A stretch of DNA of 64,000 nt from Escherichia phage moskry. The translations under genes were made by a program, and so were the position numbers. Shown one piece after another: positions 3,533 through 62,287 of the stretch (the stretch's first letter is position 1; the number at the start of each line of letters is the position of its first letter). The notes beneath the pieces were generated by a model. It did not search any database. It was not told the origin of the DNA and saw only the letters and a list, made by a program, of their open reading frames with translations. Location: the sequence record MN850651.1; one strand, written 5' to 3'.

Positions 3533-3585
3533 TTCTCCTCTAGTAAGTAAGGTTTACTATAACACAACCTGAGGAGAAGTAAACT
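3533..3585 (-). promoter_or_regulatory. PeSL-like cassette with SD-containing stem
   Basis: Minus reading: GTTTACT, 17 nt, TATAGT; arms TTCTCCTC/GAGGAGAA, the 3' arm being the SD of the ATG at 3528. Confidence 0.5.
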
Positions 3586-3595
3586 GATAGATGCC

Positions 3596-3622
3596 AAAAA
3601 GCCCCAACCATAAGGAAGGGGC
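3596..3622 (-). terminator. Intrinsic terminator (minus strand)
   Basis: Stem AGCCCC/GGGGCT with A-run on plus strand (U-run on the minus transcript), 3' of the stop of rI. Confidence 0.6.
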
Positions 3623-3629
3623 TAGTAAA

Positions 3630-7217: not shown

Positions 7218-7427
7218 TTATTCTTGGAATGGTGTGAGTTTTCCAGCTATCGAACAAATTTCTACCATTGCAGGATAAAACTCTTTCACTTGTTCAAGGC
7301 GCTGGACAGCGTACCGCATTTCGCCTTCTTCAAGACAAGCCACCTGGTCATCGAGCAAATATTTATGGTAACCAGTACAGGCTTCACTAATGATACGTTG
7401 GAATTCTTGCAAACTTTCAATTTTCAC
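7218..7427 (-). CDS. Hypothetical small protein
   Basis: 69 aa; apparent GTG start with SD GAGGA 9 nt upstream. Confidence 0.4.
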   Translation of the reverse strand: MKIESLQEFQRIISEACTGYHKYLLDDQVACLEEGEMRYAVQRLEQVKEFYPAMVEICSIAGKLTPFQE

Positions 7428-18170: not shown

Positions 18171-18210
18171 GATAGGACTACTATAACATAAACTTACTTA
18201 GATGTAAATT
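18171..18210 (-). promoter_or_regulatory. PeSL-like early promoter cassette
   Basis: Minus reading: ATTTACA, 17 nt, TATAGT; left arm GATAGGACTA conserved, right arm degenerate. Confidence 0.45.
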
Positions 18211-18362
18211 ATTTCAACGTCACCTTTAGCTGCTTTATAACCTTCAGCCCAAGATACAACAGAGTTTTTATCTGAGGATTCAAATTCAGGCATTGGACTT
18301 TCACCAATATTCACACAGTATGTTTCTTCATTTTCATCGAACCAAATAATTAAAGTAGTCAT
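18198..18362 (-). CDS. Small protein (54 aa), below ORF-track cutoff
   Basis: ATG at 18362 lies in the conserved leader GTCATTTTGTTTACTCCTCTG (plus strand), also found at 55251; 3' end overlaps the downstream cassette. Confidence 0.3.
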   Translation of the reverse strand: MTTLIIWFDENEETYCVNIGESPMPEFESSDKNSVVSWAEGYKAAKGDVEIIYI

Positions 18363-18370
18363 TTTGTTTA

Positions 18371-18422
18371 CTCCTCTGTAGTTGTTAAGTCTATAGTATC
18401 ACCATCCTTGGTGATTGTACAT
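18371..18422 (-). promoter_or_regulatory. PeSL-like cassette, near-duplicate of 55261..55312
   Basis: Plus-strand CTCCTCTGTAGTTG(T/A)TAAGTCTATAGTATCA shared with the copy at 55261; TGTACA -35-like. Confidence 0.45.
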
Positions 18423-18430
18423 CATTATTT

Positions 18431-19513: not shown

Positions 19514-19521
19514 TATTTATA
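19514..19521 (-). promoter_or_regulatory. Late promoter (TATAAATA on minus strand)
   Basis: Plus strand TATTTATA about 36 nt upstream of ATG 19478. Confidence 0.5.
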
Positions 19522-19522
19522 C

Positions 19523-19550
19523 AAAAAAGCCCCAACCTTTCGGAAGGGGC
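19523..19550 (-). terminator. Intrinsic terminator at the end of the tRNA cluster
   Basis: Stem GCCCC/GGGGC with a 6-A run on plus strand (U-run on the minus transcript). Confidence 0.6.
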
Positions 19551-19593
19551 TATATACCTTGTCGGGGTTCCACCTGCTAAGGCAAGTGTTTGT

Positions 19594-53360: not shown

Positions 53361-54929
53361 ATGACTACTATCAAAACTAAAGCTCAGCTCGTAGACAAAT
53401 GGAAAGAACTGCTGGAAGGTGAAGGCCTGCCGGAAATCGCTAATAGCAAGCAGGCTATTATCGCTAAAATCTTCGAAAACCAGGAAAAAGATTTCGAAGT
53501 ATCCCCTGAATATAAAGACGAGAAAATCGCTCAGGCATTTGGTTCTTTCTTGACCGAAGCTGAAATTGGTGGTGACCATGGTTATAATGCTCAGAACATC
53601 GCAGCAGGTCAAACCTCTGGTGCAGTAACCCAAATTGGGCCGGCAGTTATGGGTATGGTTCGTCGTGCTATTCCTAATCTGATTGCTTTTGATATTTGTG
53701 GTGTTCAGCCTATGAACAGCCCGACCGGTCAGGTATTTGCTCTCCGTGCAGTATATGGTAAAGACCCTATCGCTGCTGGCGCTAAAGAAGCTTTCCATCC
53801 GATGTATGCCCCAGACGCGATGTTCTCTGGTCAGGGTGCTGCTAAGAAATTCCCAGCTCTGGCTGCTGACACTACTACTGTTGTAGGTGATATCTATACT
53901 CACTTCTTCCAAGAAACTGGTACCGTATATCTGCAAGCTTCTGCTATCGTAACACTTGATTCTAGTGCAACTGATGCAGCTAAATTAGATGCAGAAGTTA
54001 AGAAACAAATGGAAGCTGGTGCACTGGTAGAAATCGCTGAAGGTATGGCTACTTCTATCGCTGAACTTCAGGAAGGTTTCAACGGTTCTACCGATAACCC
54101 ATGGAATGAAATGGGCTTCCGTATCGATAAACAAGTTATCGAAGCTAAATCTCGTCAGCTGAAAGCTGCTTACTCTATCGAATTAGCACAAGACCTCCGT
54201 GCAGTACACGGTATGGATGCTGATGCTGAACTGAGCGGTATTCTGGCTACAGAAATTATGCTAGAAATCAACCGTGAAGTTGTTGATTGGATTAACTACT
54301 CTGCACAGGTTGGTAAATCTGGTATGACCCTGACTCCGGGTTCTAAAGCTGGCGTATTTGACTTCCAGGACCCGATTGATATCCGTGGTGCTCGTTGGGC
54401 CGGTGAAAGCTTTAAATCTCTGTTGTTCCAGATTGATAAAGAAGCAGTTGAAATTGCTCGTCAAACCGGTCGTGGTGAAGGTAACTTCATTATCGCTTCC
54501 CGTAACGTAGTTAACGTACTGGCTTCAGTTGATACTGGTATTTCTTACGCTGCGCAGGGTCTGGCTTCTGGTTTTAATACCGACACTACTAAGTCTGTAT
54601 TTGCCGGTGTACTTGGTGGTAAATACCGCGTATACATCGACCAGTATGCTAAACAGGATTACTTCACCGTTGGTTACAAAGGCGCTAACGAAATGGATGC
54701 AGGTATTTACTATGCTCCTTACGTTGCACTTACCCCGCTGCGTGGTTCCGATCCTAAGAACTTCCAGCCGGTAATGGGCTTCAAAACTCGTTACGGTATC
54801 GGTGTTAACCCGTTTGCTGAAAGTTCCCTGCAGGCTCCAGGTGCTCGCATCCAGTCCGGTATGCCGTCTATCCTGAACAGCCTTGGTAAGAACGCTTACT
54901 TCCGCCGTGTATATGTAAAAGGCATCTAA
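53361..54929 (+). CDS. 23: Major capsid protein gp23
   Basis: 522 aa (T4 gp23 is 521); N-terminus closely matches recalled T4 gp23 (KWK.LLEGEGLPEIANSKQAIIAKIFENQEKDF...). Confidence 0.95.
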   Translation: MTTIKTKAQLVDKWKELLEGEGLPEIANSKQAIIAKIFENQEKDFEVSPEYKDEKIAQAFGSFLTEAEIGGDHGYNAQNIAAGQTSGAVTQIGPAVMGMVRRAIPNLIAFDICGVQPMNSPTGQVFALRAVYGKDPIAAGAKEAFHPMYAPDAMFSGQGAAKKFPALAADTTTVVGDIYTHFFQETGTVYLQASAIVTLDSSATDAAKLDAEVKKQMEAGALVEIAEGMATSIAELQEGFNGSTDNPWNEMGFRIDKQVIEAKSRQLKAAYSIELAQDLRAVHGMDADAELSGILATEIMLEINREVVDWINYSAQVGKSGMTLTPGSKAGVFDFQDPIDIRGARWAGESFKSLLFQIDKEAVEIARQTGRGEGNFIIASRNVVNVLASVDTGISYAAQGLASGFNTDTTKSVFAGVLGGKYRVYIDQYAKQDYFTVGYKGANEMDAGIYYAPYVALTPLRGSDPKNFQPVMGFKTRYGIGVNPFAESSLQAPGARIQSGMPSILNSLGKNAYFRRVYVKGI

Positions 54930-54953
54930 TCTTAATTGATTAAATCTTATTTT

Positions 54954-54983
54954 GGGAGACTTCGGTCTCCCATTTTTGGTTTT
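54954..54983 (+). terminator. Intrinsic terminator after gene 23
   Basis: Stem GGGAGAC-TTCG-GTCTCCC followed by a T-rich run. Confidence 0.7.
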
Positions 54984-55251
54984 ATTTCTGTGCAATTTTG
55001 ATGTAAGTTTTCAAAATATTTTGCCAATTAGGCATACCTTCTTGGATATATGCTGGAGAACCGTCTTTGTTTTTGAATGATGCAAGTTTATCAGTGGCCC
55101 AATAACCTTTAGCTCGAGCTTCAGAATCAACTTTCATCCATACTTTGTTGAAGGCATTACCATTAACTTTTGCACCATATTTTTCTACTAACTTAACTGC
55201 TTCAGCTTCCAGAACTTTTAAAGTATCTCGTAAGAAACGTGCTTTAGTCAT
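54982..55251 (-). CDS. Small basic protein on the opposite strand between genes 23 and 24
   Basis: 89 aa; ATG in the same leader (GTCATTTTGTTTACTCCTCTG on plus strand) as the ORF at 18362; SD GAGGAG. Confidence 0.5.
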   Translation of the reverse strand: MTKARFLRDTLKVLEAEAVKLVEKYGAKVNGNAFNKVWMKVDSEARAKGYWATDKLASFKNKDGSPAYIQEGMPNWQNILKTYIKIAQK

Positions 55252-55260
55252 TTTGTTTAC

Positions 55261-55312
55261 TCCTCTGTAGTTGATAAGTCTATAGTATCATATACCAAAT
55301 ACGTTGTAAACA
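55261..55312 (-). promoter_or_regulatory. PeSL-like early promoter cassette inside the late module
   Basis: Near-duplicate of 18371..18422; minus reading GTTTACA, spacer, TACTAT-like -10. Confidence 0.5.
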
Positions 55313-55317
55313 ATCTT

Positions 55318-55325
55318 TATAAATA
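55318..55325 (+). promoter_or_regulatory. Late promoter TATAAATA for gene 24
   Basis: Exact TATAAATA 28 nt upstream of ATG 55353. Confidence 0.6.
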
Positions 55326-55352
55326 ATCTATATCACATAAGGAAAAAATGCA

Positions 55353-56636
55353 ATGAGTAAAATCCAAAAATTATTGCGTGAATCTACAACGTCTACTAGC
55401 AACTCAATTGGTCGCCCAAATCTCGTTGCTTTGACTCGCGCTACGACTAAATTAATATATTCTGACATTGTAGCAACACAAAGAACTAATCAACCTGTTG
55501 CTGCTTTTTATGGTATCAAATATCTTAACCCAGATAACGAATTCACATTTAAAACTGGCGCTACTTATGCGGGTGAAGCTGGATACGTAGACCGAGAAAA
55601 AATTACTGAGCTCACAGAAGAATCAAAAGTCACACTAAATAAAGGCGATTTTTTCAAATATAATAATATCGTCTATAAAGTGTTAGAAGATACACCATTT
55701 GCAGATATTCAAGAAAGTGATCTAGAATTAGCTCTTCAGATTGCAGTCGTTCATTTAAAGGTACGGTTATTTTCAGATGCAGCGGTAACAAGCAAATTTG
55801 AAAGCTCTGATAGCGAAATTTCTGATGCAAGATTCCAGATTAATAAATGGCAAACTTCAGTCAAATCTCGTAAACTTAAAACTGGTCTCACGGTTGAATT
55901 AGCGCAAGATTTGGAAGCGAATGGATTTGATGCCCCTAACTTCTTAGAAGATTTGCTTGCTACTGAAATGGCAGATGAAATTAATAAAGATATTCTTCAG
56001 TCTTTAATTACTGTATCGAAACGTTATAAAGTTACTGGAATTACTGACACTGGATTTATTGACTTGAGCTATGCGTCAGCTCCAGAAGCAGGTCGTTCAT
56101 TATATCGAATGGTGTGTGAAATGGTATCACACATTCAAAAAGAGACAACTTATACTGCAACGTTTTGTGTAGCCTCAGCTCGTGCAGCTGCTATTCTTGC
56201 TGCTTCTGGTTGGTTAAAACATAAGCCAGAAGATGACAAGTATCTTTCACAAAATGCTTATGGATTCTTGGCAAATGGATTACCTCTTTACTGCGATACC
56301 AACAGCCCGTTAGATTATGTTATTGTGGGTGTTGTAGAAAATCTCGGCGAAAAAGAAATTGTAGGGTCCATCTTTTATGCTCCATACACTGAAGGAGTAG
56401 ATTTAGATGACCCAGAACATGTCGGTGCTTTTAAAGTTGTAGTTGATCCAGAAAGCTTGCAACCGTCTATCGGATTATTGGTTAGATATGCTTTATCAGC
56501 AAATCCTTACACAGTAGCAAAAGACGAAAAAGAAGCGAGAATAATTGATGGTGGGGACATGGATAAAATGGCAGGACGTTCAGACTTGTCTGTTTTACTC
56601 GGTGTTAAATTGCCTAAAATTATTATAGATGAATAA
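55353..56636 (+). CDS. 24: Capsid vertex protein gp24
   Basis: 427 aa, the T4 gp24 length; gp23-like fold expected; follows gene 23. Confidence 0.85.
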   Translation: MSKIQKLLRESTTSTSNSIGRPNLVALTRATTKLIYSDIVATQRTNQPVAAFYGIKYLNPDNEFTFKTGATYAGEAGYVDREKITELTEESKVTLNKGDFFKYNNIVYKVLEDTPFADIQESDLELALQIAVVHLKVRLFSDAAVTSKFESSDSEISDARFQINKWQTSVKSRKLKTGLTVELAQDLEANGFDAPNFLEDLLATEMADEINKDILQSLITVSKRYKVTGITDTGFIDLSYASAPEAGRSLYRMVCEMVSHIQKETTYTATFCVASARAAAILAASGWLKHKPEDDKYLSQNAYGFLANGLPLYCDTNSPLDYVIVGVVENLGEKEIVGSIFYAPYTEGVDLDDPEHVGAFKVVVDPESLQPSIGLLVRYALSANPYTVAKDEKEARIIDGGDMDKMAGRSDLSVLLGVKLPKIIIDE

Positions 56637-56671: not shown

Positions 56672-57670
56672 TTATGATACTAATTCAATCCATGCAGGAC
56701 GCAGAACATCTTGCACCATTCTGACTAATTCTTTCTTAACAAGATTCGGATTATCAGATGATGTTAATACAATACCTTCACGAGAAGTTTCTTCCAGAAT
56801 ATCTTGAACAGTCAATCCCATCACTTTGCCAAAATCTTTTGGCGTTACAGTCCCAATCTTAGAAATCACATTATTAATACGATTTAATGTAACATAACAA
56901 GCTAGAACATCAAGCAAGTTTTTGTCAGTTTCGGTTAATGGAACCTGAGTTTTAATAGGCTTATCAGACTTTTTCTTTTCACTGAATTTAGAGTTCTTGC
57001 ACTTAATAGCTACACGAGTACCGTTTGGCAGCCATTTAGGGAAACAGGGCTTCAGAACATAACCTTCTGCCGTATTATCGCCAATAACATTAGCATCAAA
57101 TACGCAATTATTTGCTTCGACAAGGTCTTCCGATGCCGTGGCGTTATAAGCGGCTAAGACGGAATCAAGGTCATTTGGAATCATGATAAGAGAATCAAAT
57201 GTTCCACGTCCAAGCATTGGTGCCATTTTAAAACCGAATTCATTACAGAAATCTTGCATTTCGTAATCGGTCAAATACGTATTATCACCACTTTCTGTAT
57301 TGATAAGGATATCGAACACGTAAAAATCTTTTTCACCGTAGTCAACACCTTTCTGGATTCCACCACCAGCGAATTCACCGAATACTTGATATGATACGGC
57401 TCGAGCTGTGTACATGAATTCCTGAACGGCTTTAATAGCTTTATCATACTTCTTGAGTATGATTTCATAACCATAAAAATCTTCTGCTGGAAGAATAGGG
57501 CCTGTGCGCTTGGCGCATGTGACGTTGTCACGTTCAATTATTAACGAGAAGTTAGTCCCATGGATTTTCTCACGTGCTACCCAAACACCAGTAGTCAAAC
57601 CATTAGTGTAGAGTTTTTCAATAAACTTAGAGTTGTAGTGGTTTTCAAGACTGCTGTATTTCTTAAACAT
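56672..57670 (-). CDS. rnlB: RNA ligase 2
   Basis: 332 aa (T4 Rnl2 is 334); nucleotidyltransferase lysine motif KIHGTNF; long identical stretches to recalled T4 Rnl2 at both ends. Confidence 0.9.
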
Positions 57671-58331: not shown

Positions 58332-59750
58332 TTATGGATATGTATAGATGATACCAGTTTCCAAAGCAGTTTTATGGATGATGTATCCATTACGTGATTC
58401 TTGAACATCAACTTCTGGATAATCTTTCATCATCTTCTGAAGAGTGTAACGATGCAGGTAGTATTTACTATCTGGATCTTCAGTTTTCCAATCTTTACCT
58501 TCTTCAGTCATTTTTTGGATTTCATCCATAACCCACCATCCGCACCAGATGTAAGCTGAAGTACGATGTGGAAGAGGATGAACATAAGGTAATTCACCTT
58601 CTGGTTCTGGAGCAACTTTATCGGTTACCTGAACTTGACCTTCTGCTGTAATAGTTTTGCTATCGTAATCAGTTGCAGTAATAGTTGCAGTAACTTCAAT
58701 AGTTTGACTTCCAATAGATGAGGTATCAACGGTATATACATTAGTTGACCCTTCTACAGGAGAAGAATCTTTCTTCCATGAATACTCAATTTGCGCTTCT
58801 TCTGGAGCATCAGTGACATTAGCGGTAAATGTAGCCGAAGCATCTTGCTGAACGTTAATAGAAGGAGGAGTCAATGTAACCCGTGGATTCATTGTCTTCT
58901 TATTAACCGTTAATGATACTTCATTCGAAGTAACTTCCTTTGCATCATAATCTGTCGCGGTTACTTGGGCTACACATTTAATTCTTTTTACCCCGCTTGT
59001 AGTCGGAGTATAGCTAAATGTAGAGTTAGTTTCTCCACCAACCTGTGAATCATCTACATACCACTGATACGTAGCAGACGCTCCAACCGGTTGAGAAGCT
59101 AAGGCAGCAGTAAATTGAACTGGGGTTCCAATTACTCCGGCTGAAGGACTATTGGGAGTTACTGCCAACGTAGTTGTCTGTGTCTTTTTATTAACAGTCA
59201 GTGACACTTCATTAGAAGTAACGCTTAGTGCGTCATAATCTGTTGCGGTTACTTGAGCCACACACTTAATTCTTTTTACCCCGCTTTCGGCAGGAGTGTA
59301 ATTGAACGTAGCGTTAGTTGCTTCACCAACAGGAGAATCATCTACATACCATTGATAAGTAGCGTTTGCGCCTGATGGCTGCGAAGCTAAAGCGGCAGTA
59401 AATTGAATAGCTGTTCCTATTACTCCAGCGTCAGGGCTATTAGGAGTTACAGCTAAGGTAGTCGTTTGTGTCTTGTTTTGAACTGTGATAGTTGTAGTAG
59501 CTTCTGCTGTTTCAGCTTCAGCTTCTGGAACTGTATTTGTTGCAACTACTTTAATAGTCTTTTGACCGGCAGGTCCTTTTAGTACATAACTAAAAGTTGC
59601 TTCAGCTCCATCTTGTGGAACATCATCCACAGACCAAGCATATGTAATAGGTCCATCTCCAGTTTGACCACTGGGTGTAGCAGTAAACTGCTTAGTCTCA
59701 TCTATAACTCCAGTAGGTGTTTTAGGAGTTATATCAACTGTAAAAGCCAT
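58332..59750 (-). CDS. hoc: Head outer capsid protein Hoc with an extra Ig-like domain
   Basis: 472 aa (recalled T4 Hoc is 376); N- and C-termini match recalled T4 Hoc; two near-identical 96-aa Ig-like repeats. Confidence 0.85.
   Translation of the reverse strand: MAFTVDITPKTPTGVIDETKQFTATPSGQTGDGPITYAWSVDDVPQDGAEATFSYVLKGPAGQKTIKVVATNTVPEAEAETAEATTTITVQNKTQTTTLAVTPNSPDAGVIGTAIQFTAALASQPSGANATYQWYVDDSPVGEATNATFNYTPAESGVKRIKCVAQVTATDYDALSVTSNEVSLTVNKKTQTTTLAVTPNSPSAGVIGTPVQFTAALASQPVGASATYQWYVDDSQVGGETNSTFSYTPTTSGVKRIKCVAQVTATDYDAKEVTSNEVSLTVNKKTMNPRVTLTPPSINVQQDASATFTANVTDAPEEAQIEYSWKKDSSPVEGSTNVYTVDTSSIGSQTIEVTATITATDYDSKTITAEGQVQVTDKVAPEPEGELPYVHPLPHRTSAYIWCGWWVMDEIQKMTEEGKDWKTEDPDSKYYLHRYTLQKMMKDYPEVDVQESRNGYIIHKTALETGIIYTYP
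58894..59469 (-). repeat. Tandem direct repeat, 2 x 288 bp, within hoc
   Basis: Units starting 58894 and 59182 are about 85 percent identical; each encodes one KKTQTTTLAVTPNSP...SLTVNKKT Ig-like domain. Confidence 0.7.
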
Positions 59751-62018: not shown

Positions 62019-62249
62019 ATGGTACTTGAATTTAAACAATTTTTATACGAAGCATCTATTGACGAATTCATGGGTAAAATTGCTAGTTGTCATACCTTAG
62101 AAGGGCTTGAAGAATTGGAAGCTTATTATAAGAAACGTATAAAAGAAACGGAATTAAAAGATACAGATGATATTTCTGTCAGGGATGCCTTAGCAGGTAA
62201 GCGTGCCGAACTTGAAGGCGATGATGAGGATGTGGAAGAAGACTTCTAA
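62019..62249 (+). CDS. uvsW.1: UvsW.1
   Basis: 76 aa, the recalled T4 UvsW.1 length; acidic C-terminus; SD GGAG. Confidence 0.7.
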   Translation: MVLEFKQFLYEASIDEFMGKIASCHTLEGLEELEAYYKKRIKETELKDTDDISVRDALAGKRAELEGDDEDVEEDF

Positions 62250-62251
62250 TT

Positions 62252-62287
62252 AAAAAAAGGCCCGACCTTTTTGGAAGGGCCAAAAAC
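62252..62287. terminator. Bidirectional stem-loop terminator
   Basis: A7 run, stem GGCCC/GGGCC with a 13-nt loop, then an A-run; lies between convergent genes. Confidence 0.45.

Follow-up and report, generated by a model that had tools for sequence, protein, structure and literature searches.

A small gene with a predicted early promoter, antisense between the late head genes 23 and 24 of Escherichia phage moskry

Stereotyped early promoters of T4 that stand in front of novel ORFs are said to have been described by Miller and colleagues in 2003. In T4 and RB69, these promoters have a GTTTAC -35 element, an extended -10 element, an A/T-rich upstream region, and a novel ORF behind them. PeSLs (promoter-early stem-loop cassettes) combine a strong sigma-70-like early promoter with an adjoining stem-loop; their copies share both terminator and promoter, stand repeatedly before small genes of unknown function, lie mostly in hyperplastic regions, mark replacement boundaries, and recombine with one another to give mini-circles (Arbiol et al., 2010, PMC2839356; Comeau et al., 2014, PMC4122927). 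Cassette-mediated exchange has precedents in RB49/phi1 and in T4/PST (PMC2839356, PMC4122927). Between the major capsid gene 23 and the vertex gene 24, T4 carries segD, the gene of a free-standing GIY-YIG homing endonuclease (Edgell et al., 2010, PMC2988022). The protein family phrog_6003 comprises hypothetical proteins such as RB69ORF188c/189c and VR7 gp190.

The window analyzed in this study is a 64,000-nt stretch of Escherichia phage moskry (MN850651.1). A preliminary description had reported an early-type promoter and an 89-aa basic ORF, both on the minus strand, at the place between genes 23 and 24 that segD fills in T4. The ORF, its SD sequence, and its promoter were all found, and the antisense position of segD in this slot was verified in the T4 locus; the observation is confirmed, and the interpretation built on it is partly supported by the results presented below. 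The features of the locus are as follows.

53361-54929, plus strand: gene 23, major capsid protein (ORF list)
54902-54929, plus strand: final 28 nt of gene 23, forming the left end of the segment in which the window departs from LF82-1, ATK48, and JK45 (alignment with these phages)
54953-54972, both strands: G+C-rich hairpin TGGGAGAC-TTCG-GTCTCCCA (terminator scan; folding)
54982-55251, minus strand: gene for the 89-aa basic protein, starting with ATG, the A-type allele of phrog_6003 (ORF list)
55245-55290, minus strand: 46-nt repeat comprising the -10 element, the leader, the ATG, and four more bases, with a copy at 18356-18401
55252-55275, minus strand: 5' leader (sequence)
55282-55311, minus strand: T4-type early (sigma-70) promoter (promoter scan; sequence)
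55318-55325, plus strand: late promoter TATAAATA of gene 24 (sequence; SA79RD annotation)
55353-56636, plus strand: gene 24, vertex protein (ORF list)
56672-57670, minus strand: RNA ligase 2 (ORF list)

In the consensus scan, the early promoter consists of TTTACA (55310-55305), a 17-nt spacer, and TACTAT (55287-55282) with TG before the -10 element, matching 9 of 12 positions. Read as a T4-type promoter, it is composed of GTTTAC (55311-55306), N14, and then ATGATACTAT. The extended -10 element (TG-A-TACTAT) ends at 55282, a position from which transcription of the small gene would start near 55275, and the SD sequence GAGGAG (55265-55260) lies 8 nt before the ATG. The A/T-rich region upstream of the early promoter (55312-55335) includes the late promoter box of gene 24, which lies 6 nt beyond GTTTAC and 27 nt before the gene 24 ATG; the preliminary description was right that a late promoter abuts the early cassette. 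The two promoters diverge, and the GTAAAC-N6-TATAAATA layout is kept in all occupied slots, across genera and including T4. The window promoter is one of the stereotyped early promoters of T4 and RB69, and its location inside the late head-gene region is its sole oddity.

The hairpin at 54953-54972 is followed by a T-run on the plus strand and is, according to the terminator scan, a textbook intrinsic terminator of gene 23. It is kept in all relatives compared, including the phages with an empty slot. The corresponding minus-strand RNA folds with -13.5 kcal/mol (z = -5.2) and has no clean U-run. The hairpin is presumed to be the end of the minus-strand early transcript as well; because it has no proper U-run on that strand, termination there is an assumption, and read-through antisense to gene 23 could occur. 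GenBank records already list the gene along with its early promoter, the hairpin, and the late promoter; the SA79RD record, for one, gives the early promoter, the late promoter, and the hairpin as a terminator on both strands. For RB69, the counterparts were predicted in 2006, namely the early promoter Pe:109605 (HMM score 29.9) and the adjacent late promoter Pl:109573 (Nolan et al., 2006, PMC1524935 supplements).

At the homologous position of T4, upstream of segD, we found a sigma-70-like site of the same type, TTTACA-17-TATTAT with TG, which matches 10 of 12 positions.

7254-7282 of the NC_000866 stretch compared, minus strand: T4 sigma-70-like site upstream of segD

Time-resolved omics data class the segD RNA of T4 as early and its protein, which was detected, as middle (PMC9697503 supplements), while the 2010 review states that no segD-specific promoter could be found (PMC2988022). 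By analogy, an active early promoter in the 23/24 slot would fit the omics data and would be at odds with the statement of the review. Early expression of the small gene in Mosigvirus is likewise predicted from the promoter consensus and the T4 homologue. The window locus resembles the T4 segD locus in its slot, antisense orientation, hairpin, and promoter position next to the late promoter of gene 24, but the slot in the window contains no endonuclease gene, and its ORF is unrelated to SegD.

The 89-aa protein of 10.2 kDa has a pI of 9.8, with 17 K+R residues versus 9 D+E residues. It matches the phrog_6003 profile over its whole length (E=2.6e-45; residues 1-89 versus profile positions 1-90 of 90) and is a full-length family member of the A-type, not the B-type, lineage. 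Its length is kept among metagenomic relatives with 60-97% identity. The B-type lineage, which is found in Tequatro-, Gapriver-, and Dhakaviruses, is 33-37% identical to the A-type protein; both lineages are basic (pI 9.6-9.8), and NGNAxN, W51, and Q70 are invariant in both. Between the window ORF and that of the uncultured relative L010 (69% identical), the differences at codon positions 1, 2, and 3 number 22, 18, and 50. An AF2 model of the protein has a pLDDT of 90 and shows two helices, a beta-hairpin, and a third helix. Because of the full-length PHROG match, the kept length, the third-position bias, the invariant residues, and the pLDDT of 90, we regard the ORF at 54982-55251 as a real gene, for which sequence comparison makes protein-level constraint clear. 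About 120 phage records in GenBank annotate the A-type ORF as a hypothetical protein. Its small size, the lack of a known domain, and the broken copy in the RB69 reference could be taken as signs of a chance open frame rather than a gene. That reading is effectively refuted by the pattern of conservation, that is, by the profile match, the length kept over 60-97% identity, the second lineage at 33-37% with its invariant residues, and the third-position bias; the strong SD sequence, the dedicated promoter, and the confident model also argue against it.

A search of Pfam found no domain in the 89-aa protein except DUF4859, which was below threshold and was found in 3 of 15 family members, and no family of NCBIfam or PADLOC matched. 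The sequence profile search of the PDB gave nothing below E=0.02, and three fold searches gave no fold match. Neither a GIY-YIG domain (Pfam) nor similarity to the 219-aa SegD of LF82-1 was found. An exhaustive profile search of 1.84 billion proteins returned the family members and two giant Big_2/Ig-like repeat proteins, and nothing else; the giant proteins are spurious matches, with an hhalign probability of 1.8% and all-beta domains versus the helical model of the 89-aa protein.

In the RB69 reference (NC_004928, 5292-5532 of the stretch compared), the counterpart of 54982-55251 has lost 1 nt and gained 1 nt, and the broken gene is annotated as two tiny ORFs, 188c and 189c. The small gene is also split in phage mogra. 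These broken copies reflect either decay in laboratory strains or sequencing error.

T2, T4, and PEi20 lack the small gene, the RB69 reference has it frameshifted, and mogra has it split; as far as these genomes tell, it is therefore dispensable. Our best guess, of low confidence and drawn from its size, conserved basic charge, early timing, and dispensability and from nothing else, is an accessory, non-essential early role in which the protein binds nucleic acid or a host protein, in host takeover or counter-defence. The unit could instead act mainly as RNA, with early antisense transcription or promoter interference timing genes 23 and 24 and the ORF being secondary. Such a role would suit the overlap of the early -35 element and A/T-rich region with the late TATAAATA box, the divergent promoter pair that is kept across genera and even in T4, where the small gene is missing, and the possible read-through at a minus-strand hairpin without a U-run. 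It is hard to reconcile with an ORF under protein-level constraint that has a confident fold and with the loss or absence of the whole unit in T2 and PEi20, and Rfam gave no match near the gathering score at the small-gene unit; we consider it very unlikely.

A search with 501 bases around the locus matched 153 phage records, 120 of them over the full length with 95-99.8% identity. These 120, like the window, are all Mosigviruses (RB69-like T-even coliphages), for example EP32B, PhAPEC2, APCEc01, and JS09. At the protein level, the family was found in 239 phage records, about 120 of the A-type (at least 90%) and about 119 of the B-type (below 60%). In each of the 13 family-bearing loci compared, the gene is antisense to genes 23 and 24 and sits between them. 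It occupies this slot in Tequatrovirus EP01, Gaprivervirus VR20, and Dhakavirus Bp7, and the uncultured T4-like contigs L008 and L010 carry A-type relatives there with 60% and 69% identity, respectively.

The slot was found in five states. The A-type gene fills it in the window and about 120 records, RB69 included. The B-type gene is present alone in EP01, VR20, and Bp7, and it is followed by a segD-like GIY-YIG gene in LF82-1, ATK48, JK45, and 04086, where segD starts 3 nt after the B-type stop codon within the same early unit; SegD of this kind, at 80% identity or more, occurs in about 33-38 records. T4 and Manna have segD alone. In T2 and the Kanagawavirus PEi20 the slot is empty, and the 83-nt spacer consists of the hairpin and TATAAATA and nothing else. 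The region between genes 23 and 24 is therefore polymorphic across relatives (about 120 A-type versus about 33-38 B-type plus segD) rather than filled by one and the same ORF.

Compared with the empty slots, the window has about 330 bp of extra DNA (about 54983-55313), comprising the ORF, the leader, and the early promoter, and this unit is bounded exactly by the gene 23 terminator and the late TATAAATA of gene 24. Genes 23 and 24 are separate late units, and the empty slot is the terminator hairpin plus TATAAATA, so no operon is interrupted; the preliminary description, which saw an insertion into the structural operon, was mistaken on this point. The direction of the change, insertion versus loss in T2 and PEi20, is read from a few genomes. 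Four genera and uncultured relatives have the unit at this very position, and the leader differs in each of them; the unit is therefore an old, same-position, dispensable resident between two late transcription units and not a recent insertion. By the same comparison, the slot holds two deep allele lineages, A in the window and B elsewhere; on the downstream side of the B allele, segD has entered the slot, and in T4 it has taken the place of the small gene.

Two tandem copies of gene 24 lie beside the small gene in a Gaprivervirus, a Dhakavirus, and the uncultured contig L008. Shigella phage JK45 (MK962757) is filed as Tequatrovirus jaykay, yet over the end of gene 23, gene 24, and rnlB it is 98-100% identical to the Mosigvirus window, which puts its classification or mosaic make-up in question.

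The cassette at 55261-55312 had been called a near-duplicate of 18371-18422. This holds for the -10 element, the leader, and the ATG, where 55245-55290 and 18356-18401 are identical at 45 of 46 positions (repeat family D10 within the window), and it does not hold for the -35/spacer half (55291-55312 versus 18402-18422), which is poorly conserved, with 10 of 24 positions identical upstream of the -10 element. A 41-nt pattern from the repeat has these two sites in the window and no others, with 0 expected in shuffles. The unit behind the second copy is the following.

18198-18421, minus strand: partner unit, an early promoter with a TGTACA -35 element, the same leader, and a 54-aa ORF

The partner ORF (18198-18362) is RB69ORF145c, which is unrelated to the 89-aa ORF, and the weaker TGTACA -35 element of this copy leaves its promoter below the promoter-scan threshold. 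Between 0.4 and 22 kb, the minus strand of the window carries about 14 early promoter-leader units built along similar lines. Over the 41 nt, the 55/18.4-kb pair matches at 40 positions, and the next pairs match at 37, 35, and 34 of 41, so the pair is the top of a continuum and not a unique mobile element. The 55-kb copy of the window agrees at every one of the 46 positions with the 18-kb copy found in RB69 and NBG1, so the leader repeat predates the spread of the genus. Since the T2 orthologue of the 18-kb unit and the A-type relatives L008 and L010 have different leaders, one Mosigvirus leader was most likely copied onto the other, in either direction, in the Mosigvirus ancestor. The exact leader pattern was not found in IMG/VR. 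Leader copying does not show that the gene came with the cassette. We also considered the 18.4-kb unit as the donor of the gene and rejected it, the two ORFs being unrelated and both copies being ancestral to Mosigvirus (RB69 has both).

The block at 18198-18430 is 86% identical to T2-like phages (401-635 of the T2 stretch compared) from the stop codon to just past the -35 element, with the leader replaced, and looks like a promoter-plus-ORF module. A second matching block (80%) is present further along in the compared T2 stretch. In T2 the 54-aa ORF stands alone between e.6 and e.8, and RB69 has two more ORFs there (frd.3 and ORF146c). At the minus-strand early promoters ending at about 3078, 13725, 15289, 18149, and 21819, a 10-bp inverted repeat, GATAGGACTA ... 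TAGTCCTATC, brackets the -10 element. The 3' arm alone would be transcribed, and the repeat looks like a DNA-level palindrome, perhaps a protein-binding site.

The comparison with PeSLs gives likenesses and differences. Like a PeSL, the 55-kb unit has a strong sigma-70-like early promoter, an A/T-rich upstream region, and a repeated copy, and the promoter stands before a small gene. Of the replacement boundaries between close relatives, two independent right-hand crossovers lie in its leader, a third right junction lies near the start of gene 24, and the left one lies inside gene 23. In PeSLs, however, a stem-loop adjoins the promoter, whereas the terminator scan found no hairpin between 55312 and gene 24 nor beside 18422, and the only one at the 55-kb unit is 280 bp off, beyond the ORF, and belongs to gene 23. 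PeSL copies share the terminator and the promoter, and the repeat in the window is the -10 element with the transcribed leader. PeSLs lie mostly in hyperplastic regions; the 55-kb copy lies in the conserved head module, though before a gene of unknown function. Because neither copy has a stem-loop next to it and the 55-kb site belongs to the core head module, we do not file the 55-kb unit as a PeSL.

A recent PeSL-type insertion, in which a cassette copied from or recombined with the 18.4-kb unit brought a foreign early gene into the head cluster, could account for the 45/46 repeat within the window, for the 46/46 identity to the 18-kb copy of RB69 and NBG1, and for a unit that is an insertion relative to the empty slot. 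Two allele-swap junctions in the leader, described below, and the RB49/phi1 and T4/PST precedents would also fit. Nevertheless, the same family occupies the same slot, with its own leaders, in four genera and in uncultured relatives. Because four genera share the slot occupant with different leaders, the insertion is older than the leader repeat of Mosigvirus. Unrelated ORFs follow the repeated leaders, neither promoter has a stem-loop, the -35 halves differ, and one of the three mapped junctions lies outside the cassette. The recent cassette-mediated insertion proposed in the preliminary description is distinctly unlikely.

LF82-1, ATK48, and JK45 are 98-100% identical to the window in genes 23 and 24, yet they carry B plus segD instead of A, and the ends of the differing segment can be mapped in them. 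The left junction is common to all three: they match the window without exception as far as 54901, after which 8 synonymous differences follow in 28 nt, so that the gp23 end, FRRVYVKGI, is unchanged. The right junctions are spread over about 100 bp. In LF82-1 the switch lies inside GAGGAG, in ATK48 it lies in TATCAA of the leader, about 10 nt upstream of the LF82-1 switch, and in JK45 it lies near the gene 24 start, outside the cassette. Two of the three right-junction classes (LF82-1 and ATK48) thus fall in the 30-nt leader, which is what the PeSL exchange idea predicts (PMC2839356, PMC4122927). These leader junctions partly support exchange at regulatory cassettes. The JK45 junction and the left junction in gene 23 are equally compatible with ordinary homologous recombination or with conversion tracts left by an endonuclease cut.

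The gene 23 end also bears on segD. Dhakavirus 04086, which has segD, and Bp7, which lacks it, differ at 7 positions in the final 30 bases of gene 23 and at 1 in the 30 before them. This hints that the target of SegD lies in the last 30 nt of gene 23, and the 7-8 clustered synonymous changes could be a SegD target site or a co-conversion tract, with T2 as an exception. T2 has an empty slot and no segD, yet its gene 23 has the T4-type end. Because of this, the strict link between segD and the recoded end is weakened, and it is confounded with relatedness. On these data one may ask whether the polymorphism is driven by SegD, with a cut near the gene 23 end and a repair that copies segD and the B-type gene over A, the window then being the uninvaded and possibly cleavable allele. 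The position of segD 3 nt after the B-type stop codon in the same early unit is in keeping with this, as are the synonymous changes clustered in the last 30 nt of gene 23 in segD-bearing Mosigvirus and Dhakavirus genomes, whose gene 23 is otherwise 98-100% identical to that of genus-mates lacking segD, and the scatter of the right junctions over about 100 bp, which resembles conversion tracts. Free-standing endonuclease genes of T4 also typically target a neighboring gene (PMC2988022). The T4-type gene 23 end in T2 tells against it, and about 120 A-type versus about 33-38 segD-linked records is no sweep. In PMC9523250, Sokolov et al. (2018) are cited as reporting that T4 SegD does not promote the homing of segD. 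Taken together, SegD-driven exchange is quite possible, though we lean against it.

We put at about 0.8 the probability that the locus is a self-contained one-gene early unit, placed antisense between two late units, and an old dispensable resident of the slot whose alleles are exchanged by homologous recombination. Right after infection, the unmodified host sigma-70 RNA polymerase would start at the early promoter (55311-55282), and translation, driven by a leader of some 24 nt and its strong GAGGAG, would yield a basic soluble 89-aa protein with three helices and a beta-hairpin. The gene 23 terminator hairpin would also end, or at least weaken, early transcription. At a later stage, gp55-dependent transcription would proceed from TATAAATA, 6 nt away, in the opposite direction. 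Alleles would move by homologous recombination, with crossovers in the leader or promoter on one side and in the gene 23 end or hairpin on the other, and the exchange of segD-linked alleles may have been started by endonuclease cutting. The 46-nt identity would result from leader copying in the Mosigvirus ancestor, amid similarly built early promoter-leaders. Because the slot is empty, filled with the small gene, or filled with a homing endonuclease gene in related phages, the locus is an ordinary further example of the known modular gene exchange in T4-like phages.

The locus matters little in itself; the comparison gives three modest points. The otherwise very stable head module has, between genes 23 and 24, a variable slot with five states (empty, A, B, B plus segD, or segD alone). 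The crossovers that map to a few bases in the ribosome-binding site and leader are a clean natural example of short conserved regulatory sequences as exchange points. T4 segD sits behind a homologue of the window early promoter, which fits the published early class of segD RNA. A bolder proposal, which we hold to be rather unlikely, is that the promoter-leader cassette, free of a stem-loop, is itself the exchange unit, with the 30-nt leaders as portable crossover sites and the A-type as the segD-free, possibly SegD-cleavable, one of two alleles. If true, whole early genes, sometimes with a hitch-hiking segD, would be swappable even inside a conserved head-gene module.

Two further observations concern other parts of the window. 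Downstream of 24.2/24.3, at 58893-59468, there are two tandem 288-nt copies with 78% identity. G+C-rich hairpins of the GCCCC...GGGGC type were found at 3545-3624, 19519-19552, and 62249-62282; the one at 3545-3624 overlaps an early promoter unit, which is the composite layout that defines PeSLs, and this site looks like a PeSL, while the region near 19519-19552 may be another such composite.
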